Below, piece after piece: positions 8,189 through 49,453 of a DNA stretch of 49,453 bases (position 1 is its first letter; each line of letters opens with the position of its first letter). Location: contig JAGVWJ010000004.1 of the NCBI GenBank assembly GCA_018304385.1, positions 1-49,453 of the forward strand, read 5' to 3'. The translations under genes and the position numbers were made by a program. The notes beneath the pieces were generated by a model that searched no databases, was not told where the DNA came from, and saw only the letters and a program-made list of their open reading frames with translations. The DNA comes from Candidatus Micrarchaeota archaeon. Lineage in GTDB: Archaea; Micrarchaeota; Micrarchaeia; Anstonellales; Bilamarchaeaceae.

Positions 8189-8377
8189 AAAATCACCCTC
8201 ACATATTCCAATAAGAATATTTTTATCAGTAATATATAAATATACGAATATTTTTAATAGTTTCACAGGTGATTAAATTGGGAGCCACACAAACAGGAAG
8301 GGGTTTACGGATGCAAAGATCCTACAAGAGTTATTGATAGAATAACTGCAGCTATAAGCGTATTTAGAAGACCTCCT

Positions 8378-9385
8378 TTGGTAGAAGAAAGGAGGAGGGC
8401 AACAATTGTATTTGCCCATGATTGGGGCGCTGATGGGGCACAGGCAAATGTTGAGCATCAAATTAAAACTATTGGCAGATCACTTAATGCAGAGTTAGAA
8501 GTAACTACTGTTCCAGGTATTCCTCCATTAGGCAGCCCATTAATTGCTGCAATTGAATTTGATAGAGTTATTGATACGCATAGAATTACCTTAGAATTAT
8601 GTGCAAGAAAGCTGGAAGCTAAAGGCTTGTCAAAAGATGAAATTGAAAAGAAACTCTCTAATCTTGTTTTAATAAATGTTTTTGACCGAGGCGTTGGTAG
8701 CGAGCGTGTTGCGGCAATTGTAGAAGGCAAGCTTAAAATAAAAGGCGCTGATGGCGATTATCTTATTTCAGTTGCTTTGGTTGGTCCTTTAAATAATGGT
8801 ATAATTGGCGCATTAGTTAAACGATTAGACTCAGTTACTGCATTTGATCTTGCTAATGCTAAGCACCATGTTGATGATTTAGGATGCGTTACATGGGATG
8901 GTAGAACTAAATTTGGACCAGTTGCAGCACTTTACGCTAGCGGTACTGCAGCAAGCGAATTTGGTAAGCCAGTTGATGTAAGCGCTCACCCAAGAATAGC
9001 ATTTGAACCTATTTATACTGGAGATTCTGTTTCGGTTCCGTTGGTTGATATTGACCCTATTGGTAATTTAGTACTTGGATTAAGAAATGGCGAAGCAAAC
9101 AAATTGTTAGAGGCACCATTTCTAGCATTGTCAGTTGCAGGTAGAACAATATTGACTAAAACCGGTCATAAATTTAGCGATGTTGGAGAAGGTGAGTTAA
9201 TTGCTTACAGGGGTTCTAATGGATTATTAGAAATCGCAATAAATAATGGAGACCTAGCAAGACAACTAAATTTATCTAGAGAACAAGGACATCTTGAGCT
9301 TATTGTTGCTGCGAAGGTGCTACAACCAGCAACTGTTTTTGAGCTACAACCGGTATCTGAGGCGCAAGCTAGAGAGGTCGCATAA
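8378..9385 (+). CDS. SAM hydroxide adenosyltransferase / chlorinase-fluorinase (DUF62) family, divergent
   Basis: HDWG (cf. TDFG), VFDRGVGSER (cf. VVDPGVGT.R), TWDGRTKFGPVAA, IDPIGNL, GSNGLLEIAIN; true start uncertain. Confidence 0.8.
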   Translation: MVEERRRATIVFAHDWGADGAQANVEHQIKTIGRSLNAELEVTTVPGIPPLGSPLIAAIEFDRVIDTHRITLELCARKLEAKGLSKDEIEKKLSNLVLINVFDRGVGSERVAAIVEGKLKIKGADGDYLISVALVGPLNNGIIGALVKRLDSVTAFDLANAKHHVDDLGCVTWDGRTKFGPVAALYASGTAASEFGKPVDVSAHPRIAFEPIYTGDSVSVPLVDIDPIGNLVLGLRNGEANKLLEAPFLALSVAGRTILTKTGHKFSDVGEGELIAYRGSNGLLEIAINNGDLARQLNLSREQGHLELIVAAKVLQPATVFELQPVSEAQAREVA

Positions 9386-46732: not shown

Positions 46733-48355
46733 TCAACGCACAACGTGGTTTGGTACTGTTTGTAATGTATCTTTTCTATGCCACCAGTTTGCAAATCTGC
46801 CAACGCGATCATATGAGGGACTTTTTACAGTTTCTTTAACTGTTATAACTGTAGTTCCTTTACCTATCTTTACAGATAATCTATGGAAGTTTCGTGTTTC
46901 TTCTGTTCTTCTCATATCTACTTTATCAGCACCTTTTGTTACTTCGATCTTTGAATTTCGCATCCGATTATGTCCTAATAATAGTTCTCTTTCCTCACCA
47001 GTATTATCTATTACATAAGTTATTTCTTTCGTACTAGAGGTTGTAGTTCTTGTTGCAACCCTTCCGTCTTCTGTTCTTACTAACTCTGTACTTAGGACGT
47101 GTCTTTCATTTTTCGGGTTTTGCATAAGAACGCTAACCTCTCTTGCTGCCCTGACTGATAATGTTACTTCTTTTCCTGGTTGTGTAAAATCAATAGCATC
47201 ACTTCCAACATGCTCGCCATCAAAATAAACATTTGCATGACCTGCAAGCAATGGCTTATCACCTGTTTTAAATCTTGCGCATTCTACTGGCGTAGTTTCT
47301 TGACCAGCGACATCTGCAATAAGCAATAATCTTCCTTCAAATTTTTCCTTTCCTTTAAGTGCAATAGTTACCTTTTCCTGCGGACCAGCTTCTAGTTCTG
47401 TTTCAAACACTATTTTTGGTATTGCACCGCTACTAACCTCAAGACCAGCACCAACAGCCATTTCCTCTAAAGCATTAATCTCATCAAAGTCATAACCGGC
47501 TGCTGCAGCTCCTGCGGCATAGCCACCACCTGCTACTCTTCTACTTGCTGGAGCAACTGACACCGCGGCAATATGCGCAACTCTAGGCATTGGCCTTTCA
47601 AGCTGTGGCGCTGCAATAGTTTCATCACCTAAGTGTCTCTGAGTTAAGGGAGCTGCTCTTAAATCAAGGCTAGGCTCTGCAGAAAAACTTCTTACATTTT
47701 CAAATCTAACCTTACCTGAAAATGGCTGATCAAATGGGTTGCCCCAAATTATTTTAGTATCCATCACAGCTAATGTACCTTTGCCTTCAAAATGGACATC
47801 ATATCTTATTCCCCATCTATTGCCAGGCACAACACATTCAACAGCAGTAAGCTCTGAATCTGCAACCACTGTTACTGTTTGTTTTTGTGGTGCTAGTTCT
47901 CTTGTTTTTCCATCCGTACCCATACTAACTGTTATACCTGCACTTCCAACAGGTAATAATTTTACGCGTCTTTCGCTATCATCTCCTACTTCTAATGCTA
48001 CTAGAACGTTCTCGCCTGCAATATGAAATCCACCGACCCTTCCAGTAGACCCATCAACAGTTGCCTCTTTTCCAACTAATGAATCTAATAACGGACCAAC
48101 ACTTCCAGGTGTTCTCCTTGGTGCTTCTTCTTGTGGATTTGAAGTACGAACGTTTGTTTGAATTTCTCCAGAACCATTAAAACCCCTTAAGCTTCCAACA
48201 ACGCTTGCAATTAATTGTGGTGGAAAGTCAAGCATAACATCCTTTCCTGTAACGGCAAATCTAGCTGTGGTCATTCCATCTGATCGTACTACTAGGCTTT
48301 TTGGAACTTGAACCTTTTGCGCTCCAAAATTAGCATGGACTACATCTCCTACCAT
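46733..48355 (-). CDS. DUF4139-like beta-rich protein
   Basis: WGIRYDV and GHANVYFDGEHVG segments resemble DUF4139; family call tentative. Confidence 0.55.
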   Translation of the reverse strand: MVGDVVHANFGAQKVQVPKSLVVRSDGMTTARFAVTGKDVMLDFPPQLIASVVGSLRGFNGSGEIQTNVRTSNPQEEAPRRTPGSVGPLLDSLVGKEATVDGSTGRVGGFHIAGENVLVALEVGDDSERRVKLLPVGSAGITVSMGTDGKTRELAPQKQTVTVVADSELTAVECVVPGNRWGIRYDVHFEGKGTLAVMDTKIIWGNPFDQPFSGKVRFENVRSFSAEPSLDLRAAPLTQRHLGDETIAAPQLERPMPRVAHIAAVSVAPASRRVAGGGYAAGAAAAGYDFDEINALEEMAVGAGLEVSSGAIPKIVFETELEAGPQEKVTIALKGKEKFEGRLLLIADVAGQETTPVECARFKTGDKPLLAGHANVYFDGEHVGSDAIDFTQPGKEVTLSVRAAREVSVLMQNPKNERHVLSTELVRTEDGRVATRTTTSSTKEITYVIDNTGEERELLLGHNRMRNSKIEVTKGADKVDMRRTEETRNFHRLSVKIGKGTTVITVKETVKSPSYDRVGRFANWWHRKDTLQTVPNHVVR

Positions 48356-48533: not shown

Positions 48534-48634
48534 CGCCCGATATTTATTATTTAGCCGCAAGGCCCAGATTTGTTTGAACTTTTTTTTATTTACTGTAATT
48601 AATACAAAAGATAAATCAAATGAGGTGTTTACAA

Positions 48635-49331
48635 ATGAAAAATAGAAGGGATTTACTTCCATGCGGGAAGAATAGTTGTTAAGATTGGTAGTAGTACAAT
48701 AGTTAATGCAGAACGCAGATTTAATTTTAAAATTGCGGAAGCGCTAGCAGAAGATATTGTAAAATTAAAAAGAGCTGGAAAGGATGTGTTACTCGTATCT
48801 AGCGGAGCTATTGCTTTAGGAAGAAACGGACATAGCAGTGAATTGGATAAACGTATTGCCGCTGCGAAGGGACAGGTAGCTCTTATGACTGGATGGCGCG
48901 AGGTTTTTGCAATGCATGCCATAGATGTTTGCCAAGTACTAGTAAGCAATGGCTGCCAGATTGATTTTAATGCACTTAGTAGTGCTACAACGCAACTAGT
49001 AATAAATGGCAATGATGTTATTGAAGAAACTAATAATGATTTAGTTGCAAGTAAAGTTGCACGAAACACTAATGCAGATTTGTTAGTTTTATTAACAAAT
49101 GTAGATGGATACTTAGATGGCACTGGAAAAAGAGTATCTAGTATGGATGCACATAGTGCGCAGTTCGATGCTAGTACCTTCAGTGAATTTGGAACTGGAG
49201 GCATTGCTACAAAACTGCAAGCAATAAGAGAAGCTGCGATAACTGCTGTAATTGCAAATGGCACAGAACATACTGTACTTAGTCGCATTTTGGCGGGCGA
49301 GGATGTTGGAACTCTTGTGAGGGGTGAATAA
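48635..49331 (+). CDS. proB: Glutamate 5-kinase-like protein without PUA domain; needs a +1 frameshift near codon 8
   Basis: RIVVKIGSS, VSSGAIALG, AAAKGQ, LLTNVDG and GTGGIATK lie in the +1 frame relative to the GAGGTG-preceded ATG 48635. Confidence 0.85.
48646..48661 (+). promoter_or_regulatory. Putative +1 frameshift cassette AAGGGATTTACTTCCA (proB)
   Basis: Identical 16-mer in the same codon phase at 49338-49353. Confidence 0.7.
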
Positions 49332-49332
49332 A

Positions 49333-49453
49333 ATGCAAAGGGATTTACTTCCACAAAAGGATGGCAATAATTGGCGCAGGAAATATGGGAAGCCTAATAG
49401 CATCTAGAGTAATCAATAACCTGTTCGCAGCTCGCGATGTTTTTGTAACTGGC
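49333..49453 (+). CDS. proC: Pyrroline-5-carboxylate reductase, 5' part, truncated by the window; main frame is +1 to ATG 49333
   Basis: KRMAIIGAGNMGSLIA...DVFVTG Rossmann start typical of ProC, directly after proB. Confidence 0.78.
49338..49353 (+). promoter_or_regulatory. Putative +1 frameshift cassette AAGGGATTTACTTCCA (proC)
   Basis: Identical to 48646-48661. Confidence 0.7.

Follow-up and report, generated by a model that had tools for sequence, protein, structure and literature searches.

Organization of the proB and proC genes

The stretch of DNA analysed here (hereafter, the window) is an entire contig (C8, 49,453 nucleotides) of the metagenome-assembled genome (MAG) of a Candidatus Micrarchaeota archaeon. 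This genome (1.53 Mb, 36.5% GC, 89% complete) is labelled G000, and the other G, L and P numbers used below are labels for other genomes, loci and proteins. At the end of the window, on the forward strand, lie two adjacent genes of proline biosynthesis, proB and proC. In both of them a short leader open reading frame (ORF) and the enzyme are encoded in different reading frames, and the leader contains the same 16-nucleotide sequence, which we refer to as the cassette. The contig end at position 49453 cuts proC, so that the window stops inside this gene.

The leader ORF of proB is preceded by the Shine-Dalgarno (SD) sequence GAGGTG (48622–48627), which is complementary to the 3' end of the 16S rRNA of G000 (...GATCACCTCC), from which the anti-SD sequence was deduced. 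After a spacer of 7 nt, an ATG at 48635 opens a frame-0 ORF of 15 codons (MKNRRDLLPCGKNSC; 48635–48682) that ends at TAA 48680–48682 and has homologous short ORFs in relatives. The body of proB (48660–49331, stop TAA 49329–49331) is found in the +1 frame. On the basis of translation and Pfam analysis it encodes a glutamate 5-kinase that matches AA_kinase (PF00696, 1.2e-19) and lacks the PUA domain. The motif typical of the N-terminus of glutamate 5-kinases, VVK(I/L)G(S/T)S, is present, and it is encoded in the +1 frame. This frame opens after TGA 48636–48638, which overlaps the frame-0 ATG. An initial annotation of this DNA had reported that no ATG, GTG or TTG occurs in the proB frame upstream of the RIVVKIGSS motif, and translation of the ORFs confirmed it; the earliest canonical start in the frame is GTG 48786, and its use would delete the motif.

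The proC gene is arranged in the same manner. Its SD sequence, GGGGTGA (49321–49327), is contained within the 3' end of proB, as it is also in L123, and precedes a frame-0 leader ORF of 24 codons (49333–49407) with stop TAG 49405–49407. The proC body, again in the +1 frame, runs from 49352 to the contig end at 49453, so that only 34 of its +1-frame codons fall in the window, among them those of the Rossmann motif IIGAGNMG. Full-length orthologues (L123, L124) carry both PF03807 (F420_oxidored) and PF14748 (P5CR_dimer).

The 16-mer AAGGGATTTACTTCCA is present in the window in exactly two copies, at 48646–48661 in proB and at 49338–49353 in proC, in the same phase with respect to the SD-preceded ATG, and no further exact copy was found elsewhere in the G000 genome. 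On the basis of the exact repeat and of its conservation (see below), the proB cassette comprises a G-run (48648–48650), the codon TTA (48653–48655), a proposed P-site codon CTT (48656–48658) and a proposed sensor codon CCA (48659–48661); in proC, the proposed P-site CTT is at 49348–49350 and the proposed sensor CCA at 49351–49353. The SD-preceded ATGs, the shared in-phase 16-mer, the early TAA and TAG stops and the +1 catalytic domains were all found where the initial annotation had placed them. When CTTC is read as one step, the predicted products begin with MKNRRDLL-HAGRIVVKIGSS for proB and MQRDLL-HKRMAIIGAGNMG for proC, which reproduces the N-termini expected from a +1 shift at this site. 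An exact pair of 16-mers somewhere in 49 kb is, by itself, not very rare; chance and indel error are excluded here because phase and position are shared by two genes of one pathway and because the arrangement recurs in independent assemblies. A genome-wide search of G000 for other short ORFs that open at an SD-preceded ATG and feed a +1 ORF devoid of start codons found proB alone.

Occurrence of the cassette in other genomes

In total, 17 cassettes were identified in about 10 independent Micrarchaeota assemblies, which, according to the record names, derive from differing studies and assemblers. Nine of them belong to genes for the short, PUA-less type of ProB and four to proC genes; the others are found at two loci where tandem cassettes precede a gene for nickel-pincer ornithine cyclodeaminase. 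The pattern search carried out on all 99 genomes of the family of G000 gave 9 true cassettes, distributed over 7 genomes from 5 genera, together with 6 other matches inside ordinary genes that are due to chance. Protein look-ups added the cassettes at L122, L123 (both proB and proC), L124 and L125. When one genome per species was scanned (about 185,000), 115 matches were obtained, a number near the chance expectation, and about 109 of these are chance occurrences within ordinary genes. The full layout, with a short frame 0 and a +1 ORF starting at the site, was observed in only six of the 115, all of them in five Micrarchaeota MAGs and all upstream of proB, proC or an ornithine cyclodeaminase gene. 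A generic ProB peptide pattern applied to metagenome contigs returned only distant bacterial ProBs (identity of 38% or less), none with the motif.

In ProB searches that covered 41 related genomes and 401 from the phylum, the short ProB was found in only six besides G000 (G002, G005, G183, G298, G361 and G274), and all except G274 belong to the same family as the window. Identity to the ProB of the window is 70% in G002, 52% in G005, 53% in G183, 39% in G298 and 36% in G361; these genomes represent four genera and all show the same layout. As the initial annotation had proposed, the 5' ends of the relatives were aligned, and the split frame and the CTT-CCR core turned out to be retained across ProB identities of 36–83%. 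The more distant ProB of G274, which belongs to another family, is a 751-amino acid ORF with a plain ATG, and in the long PUA-type ProBs of the same family and order a plain ATG immediately precedes the VVK motif. The database proteins nearest to the ProB of the window have been called at merely 172–194 amino acids, as expected where a start codon does not exist.

The proC cassette was likewise recovered in three other assemblies, even where the order of the two genes is reversed: G005 has the order proC-proB, and both genes have the cassette. No ATG precedes the Rossmann motif in the G005 proC, and the proC genes of G004 and L123 have the cassette and no in-frame ATG. G183 and G298 possess a different type of proC, located in a separate proA-proC pair, with a plain ATG and no leader.

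These comparisons bear on one explanation of a split frame, namely that it derives from sequencing or assembly indels or from decaying pseudogenes. MAGs do carry indel errors, a search of G000 and G005 did not reveal proA, and the proC of G002 is truncated. Nevertheless, about 10 independent assemblies and three gene families share the one-base offset, always at this motif; the enzyme ORFs downstream of it are intact and conserved, and the site has no homopolymer run. This explanation is therefore extremely improbable, in agreement with the initial annotation, which had considered an indel error at both genes unlikely.

Some relatives show peculiarities of their own. At L122 (320–904), the stored protein is obtained from the database ProB call only when TGA is translated as Trp; the gene caller seems to have read through the stop, bridging the cassette region. 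At L009 (1229–1495; G002), and also in the P0007 contig, proB is followed, with an ATGA overlap, by a gene encoding only the C-terminal P5CR dimerisation domain (87–88 amino acids). In these same-genus relatives with a shortened proC, neither the Rossmann domain nor the proC cassette is present. At L017 (1440–1500; G298), a duplicated SD sequence (AAATGAGGTG) with its own 8-codon mini-ORF is located directly upstream of the proB leader, and the enzyme frame of the G298 proB has an ATG inside the SD sequence.

Structure and conservation of the cassette

The general layout consists of a strong SD sequence followed by an ATG, a frame-0 ORF of 10–25 codons with an early stop, and the enzyme in the +1 frame. 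The SD sequence lies 4–8 nt before the frame-0 ATG in all relatives. The core, which is found 5–9 frame-0 codons from the ATG, has the order G-run, spacer of 4–5 nt ending in TTA, and CTT-CCR. The consensus of the 17 cassettes is A-AGG-GRT-TTA-CTT-CCA, and in their profile, anchored at the CTT codon, the information is high from position −10 to +5 and lower than 0.8 bit from +6 onwards. The T at +1 and +2 and the C at +3 and +4 are invariant (17/17), while position 0 is C in 16 cassettes and G in the remaining one. In 14 of 17 cases CTT is preceded by TTA (by TTG, TGT or GTA in the others).

The frame-0 codon that follows CTT specifies proline in all 17 cassettes (CCA in 14, CCG in two and CCT in one). 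The overlapping +1 codon varies, being His in 11, Gln in three, Arg in two and Leu in one; the His codon to which the initial annotation had drawn attention as the new A-site codon is therefore present in both genes of the window and is not a general property of the relatives. The frame-0 proline codon is under purifying selection. In the proC of L123 the TTA codon is changed into TTG, which is silent in frame 0 and replaces Tyr with Cys in the +1 frame. The G-run shifts by one base relative to the frame among cassettes, and this mobility points to a role at the RNA level and not to a coded peptide. Since orthologous cassettes are more alike than two cassettes within one genome, they must have been inherited with the genes and not recently copied.

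A short block, conserved at the nucleotide level upstream of genes that would be co-regulated, looks like an operator, and the 16-mer might be a DNA or RNA regulatory site (for instance, the operator of a proline-responsive regulator), the frame arrangement being incidental. The block, however, always has one phase with respect to the SD-ATG and to the enzyme frame, and its variation leaves the proline codon synonymous. Moreover, the cassette region gave no match in Rfam, the block is not a palindrome, and the enzymes would still be left without start codons. We regard a role of this kind as very improbable.

Stops in both frames restrict a shift to about six codons ending at CCR. The limits are given by a TGA right after CCA in the proB of G005, by a +1 stop five codons before CTT in the proB of L123, and by a +1 TAG directly before TTC in the second cassette of L191. 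No ATG, GTG or TTG is present in the enzyme frame of 9 of the 15 enzyme-linked cassettes, and the other six have one at non-homologous positions.

These six cases favour a mechanism in which no frameshift occurs, the frame-0 ORF acts as a regulatory upstream ORF with stalling at the proline codon, and the enzyme starts at a weak or non-canonical codon of its own frame. An ATG is available in G361, L125 and G298, a GTG in the second cassette of L303, a TTG in G183, and near-cognate ATT, ATA or ATC codons in other copies. In the proC of the window, ATG 49361–49363, directly abutted by an SD-like AAGG, might be a frameshift-independent start, in G000 only. At the corresponding position, the proC orthologues of L123, G005 and G004 have ATT, ATC or ATA, so that this ATG is specific to G000, and the concern of the initial annotation that proC might start there is not favoured. 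The same applies to an ATT or ATA start of proB, because that position is GTT in many copies. More generally, neither a start nor a near-cognate codon is kept at a conserved position, ATT alternating with GTT, and the number of canonical starts is roughly that of random sequence. The SD sequence is always placed for the frame-0 ATG and never for a codon of the enzyme frame; there are no conserved hairpins that could relay a stall; and in the second cassette of L191 the +1 stop directly precedes TTC, with no start after it. Independent initiation of the enzymes is thus quite unlikely.

Several ideas were also considered and rejected. A reading of TGA of the Code-25 type fails because another TGA is present upstream in the same frame, and transcriptional slippage because no homopolymer run is conserved. 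An ATT, ATA or ATC start in the enzyme frame was discarded since its position is not conserved and GTT is found in many copies. Finally, an internal promoter at TTTAC would leave a leaderless mRNA with no downstream start.

Cassettes upstream of ornithine cyclodeaminase genes

Ornithine cyclodeaminase, which converts ornithine to proline, is unrelated to ProB and ProC. The cassette of L191 precedes a gene for a nickel-pincer enzyme of this type (TIGR00300, 3.3e-77), and the homologous gene in L303, a JGI metagenome locus, has the same leader. Other ornithine cyclodeaminase genes, from the order or from further Micrarchaeota, lack a leader and begin at an ordinary ATG or GTG. Three non-homologous enzymes therefore carry the cassette, and their sole common property is proline synthesis.

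At both loci (L191, 1700–1850; L303, 1080–1215), two cassettes are arranged in tandem, the first of which is canonical. Its frame-0 stop is no more than two codons after the proline codon (directly after it in L303), and the +1 ORF belonging to it, roughly 30 codons in length, terminates at the second SD-ATG cassette or within it, with a TGA overlapping the ATG in L303 and with the TAG directly before TTC in L191. The sequence of the L191 gene contains Ns. Tandem cassettes may represent a two-step gate or a form of frameshift-dependent coupling.

A possible proline-responsive frameshift

Taken together, the sequence comparisons indicate that expression of proB and proC very probably requires a +1 programmed frameshift. 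If a frameshift does take place, its response to proline is likely: the exclusive link with proline genes and the selection for the proline codon make proline supply the obvious input. An obligatory +1 frameshift used as a proline gauge is the best-supported reading of the data as a whole, and we hold it with some reserve. Slippage at CUU, the action of the G-run through the anti-SD and a shift rate that tracks proline supply are inferred.

According to this model, the ribosome would initiate at the SD-preceded ATG and read 5–9 frame-0 codons, until CUU reaches the P site and the proline codon CCR is in the A site. The G-run, which is located 4–6 nt upstream, in the register of the internal SD of prfB, and a weak E-site codon (usually UUA) would then favour a forward slip. 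If Pro-tRNA arrives fast, frame 0 would go on to a stop within 0–17 codons, and only a short peptide would be made; if the A site stays empty, the peptidyl-tRNA-Leu would re-pair from CUU to UUC, and +1 reading would yield the enzyme. Scarce charged tRNA-Pro would in this way lead to more synthesis of the proline-making enzymes. Because no proline codon is used more often than CCA, slow decoding would be expected only when proline is short or as a consequence of the intrinsic slowness of proline. A tRNA-Pro(UGG), the decoder of CCA and CCG, was found in three cassette-bearing genomes.

In a different view, the frameshift does occur and is needed for expression, but it is constitutive; the proline codon, retained because proline is by nature a slow A-site acceptor, would provide a fixed pause and set a fixed low expression. 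The high usage of CCA, which excludes slowness through tRNA rarity, speaks for it, as does the well-established slowness of proline in peptide-bond formation (PMC8129111, PMC12856214). A fixed pause would suit any gene, yet all the cassettes found among about 185,000 species and in the 99 genomes of the family precede enzymes of proline synthesis, which belong to three unrelated families. A constitutive frameshift is for this reason unlikely, while it has a better chance than the other alternatives discussed above.

A number of observations weigh against a proline gauge based on frameshifting. As for the codons, CCA accounts for 56% of the proline codons in the 836 long ORFs of G000 and is not rare; in-frame CTT-CCA occurs 114 times in the same ORFs (observed/expected 0.69), and two ordinary genes of G000 have GGG within −9 to −4 of an in-frame CTT-CCR. 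No clear signal of avoidance of CTT-CCR, or of G-run plus CTT-CCR, was detected in ordinary genes. The occurrence of the combination in ordinary genes implies that the definition of the cassette may be incomplete, or the shifting inefficient; the vicinity of the start codon, or the peptide being synthesized, may also contribute to the signal. As for the cassettes themselves, the G-run, conserved from −9 to −5, can form only 3–4 bp with the deduced anti-SD. In the second cassette of L191, GTT replaces CTT. A canonical start is present at some point of the enzyme frame in the G000 proC, in G361, L125, G298 and G183, and in the second cassette of L303, as detailed above. Analysis with RNAalifold of 13 anchored sequences revealed no conserved downstream stimulatory RNA structure beyond a 3-bp hairpin. 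As for the genomes, the only tRNA-Leu seen is tRNA-Leu(UAG), tRNA genes being poorly detectable throughout the family, and no proA (TIGR00407) was detected in either G000 or G005, both of which are incomplete MAGs with proB and proC. The proA of G000 may lie beyond the contig end, as the contig stops within proC.

Comparison with known systems

Autoregulatory +1 frameshifting has two classic cases, bacterial release factor 2 (RF2) and eukaryotic antizyme. The archaeal cassettes are most similar to the prfB gene of RF2 (AGG-GGG-UAU-CUU-UGA-C), and their register is that of E. coli prfB. In both, a short zero-frame ORF opens at an SD-preceded ATG and the functional protein is encoded in the +1 frame; both have a P-site CUU (CTT in 16 of the 17 cassettes), a purine- or G-run at −9 to −4 and a one-codon spacer, and in both the decoding of the A-site codon depends directly or indirectly on the product of the gene itself, as would be the case here through proline (PMC5009743). 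Among +1 shift codons CUU is the most efficient, by a wide margin in the RF2 context (CUU_U), and it also ranks first in Ty1 (CUU_AGG_C) (Atkins et al., PMC5009743). The two systems differ in that the A-site codon is UGA in prfB and a sense codon (CCA, CCG or CCT) in the archaeal cassettes, which precede genes for biosynthetic enzymes and not for a translation factor, in an archaeon that has no RF2. Furthermore, the archaeal shift would take place 5–9 codons from the start instead of at codon 26, and the G-run matches the anti-SD more weakly. The initial annotation had compared the site with prfB, which uses an SD-like hexamer; the G-run of the archaeal cassettes stands in the same register and could pair only weakly with the anti-SD, while the second cassette of L303, with GGTGA, has a better match.

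Slippage at a sense codon has precedents as well. In yeast Ty1, ABP140 and EST3 (CUU-AGG-C), and at hungry codons in the laboratory, a P-site CUU slips +1 while a sense codon waits in the A site (PMC5009743). The sequence CUU-AGG-C is by itself enough for about 40% shifting in Ty1; +1 shifts are promoted by 'hungry' A-site codons, which are decoded slowly, and no more than a short zero-frame ORF is needed for a sensor (PMC5009743). In contrast with the archaeal cassettes, where the codon is the commonest for proline and its slowness would depend on proline supply, the Ty1 codon owes its slowness to a rare tRNA, and shifting is constitutive. Hungry-codon shifting, for its part, has so far been an experimental or incidental effect and not a conserved regulatory device of biosynthetic genes.

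In antizyme, a +1 frameshift is both sensor and effector of a metabolic feedback (PMC3113565, PMC8211752), as proposed here. It is a eukaryotic system in which the shift takes place at a stop codon (UCC-UGA), the metabolite acts as the stimulus and the product represses synthesis, whereas the shift in the archaeal cassettes would be promoted by a lack of the metabolite, which is made by the product of the gene. A similar logic is found in attenuation by leader peptides (his, trp, pheL), where the leader ORF has codons for the amino acid of the operon and the speed of the ribosome sets expression (PMC3082878). Attenuators use runs of codons and alternative terminator and antiterminator hairpins, and their enzymes have their own starts. 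The archaeal cassette has a single codon, no conserved hairpins and an enzyme frame without a start; in particular, no terminator or antiterminator structure of the attenuation type was conserved downstream of the leader in the 13 sequences analysed with RNAalifold.

In archaea, according to a 2021 review, the −1 frameshift of Saccharolobus solfataricus fucA1 is the only one demonstrated in cellular genes, and a +1 event has only been suggested, in a haloarchaeal virus (PMC8211752). The fucA1 event differs from the present one in its direction and in its A-AAA-AAT heptamer, and it takes place mid-gene with no metabolic sensor logic. Our search of a library of papers for frameshifting in connection with proline biosynthesis, proB, glutamate 5-kinase or Micrarchaeota found no description of such a switch, in line with the initial annotation, to which no described system of this type was known.

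If our reading is correct, proB and proC would be the first archaeal cellular genes with a +1 programmed frameshift, and the design of the prfB cassette would have been used convergently in a domain without RF2. The gating of enzymes that make an amino acid by a codon for that same amino acid would be a new and very economical way of sensing, requiring neither a regulator protein nor a riboswitch or an attenuator. The switch is short (about 16 nt plus the start) and may serve as a synthetic proline-responsive part. On the practical side, gene callers truncate or miss the genes with the cassette, and proline biosynthesis is consequently under-called in metabolic reconstructions of these small-genome archaea.

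A second type of cassette

A looser search, based on the 5' half of the pro cassette (GGAAGGGGTTTAC), revealed that this half is also present at 8278–8337 of the window, within a cassette region of 8266–8400, with CGG-ATG in place of CTT-CCA. Here an SD-preceded TTG at 8278 opens a 19-codon ORF containing GGA-AGG-GGT-TTA-CGG-ATG, and the +1 frame leads into a 370-codon ORF (8273–9385) with the C-terminal domain of S-adenosylmethionine (SAM) hydroxide adenosyltransferase. Enzymes of this family release methionine from SAM, and the Met codon occupies the position that the Pro codon has in the pro cassettes.

The layout is kept in G002 (L307), of the same genus. In G024 (L308), which belongs to another genus, a single frame encodes the orthologue, and along its N-terminus a match to frame 0 of G000 gives way to a match to the +1 frame; the orthologues of G422 and G418 have ordinary starts. 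The evidence for this second type comes from two closely related genomes only, and CGG is a poor slip codon. It is tempting, but decidedly tentative, to regard the cassette as a modular amino-acid gauge, in which a fixed 5' stimulator (G-run and U-UUA) and a P-site codon would be combined with an interchangeable sensor codon, matching the amino acid that the downstream enzyme provides. If so, these archaea would possess a family of translational sensors for amino acids, made of frameshift switches at sense codons.

Other observations on the window and on G000

Upstream of proB, and divergent from it, the window contains an adjoining 540-amino acid ORF on the reverse strand (46733–48355), which has no Pfam match. 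ARAGORN together with RF00005 detected four tRNA genes in G000 and 9–19 in its relatives G005, G183 and G298, even in a 6-contig assembly. Many of the detected tRNA genes are 105–150 nt long, with predicted introns, and the tRNA genes of genomes of the family (Bilamarchaeaceae) may be unusually structured or poorly assembled. The 16S rRNA match of G000 (L020; contig C3, 28631–30388) extends over 1758 nt, as compared to the 1478 positions of the model, which suggests an insertion or an intron, and in the DNA the sequence continues with GTTTT after the 3'-terminal CCTCC.

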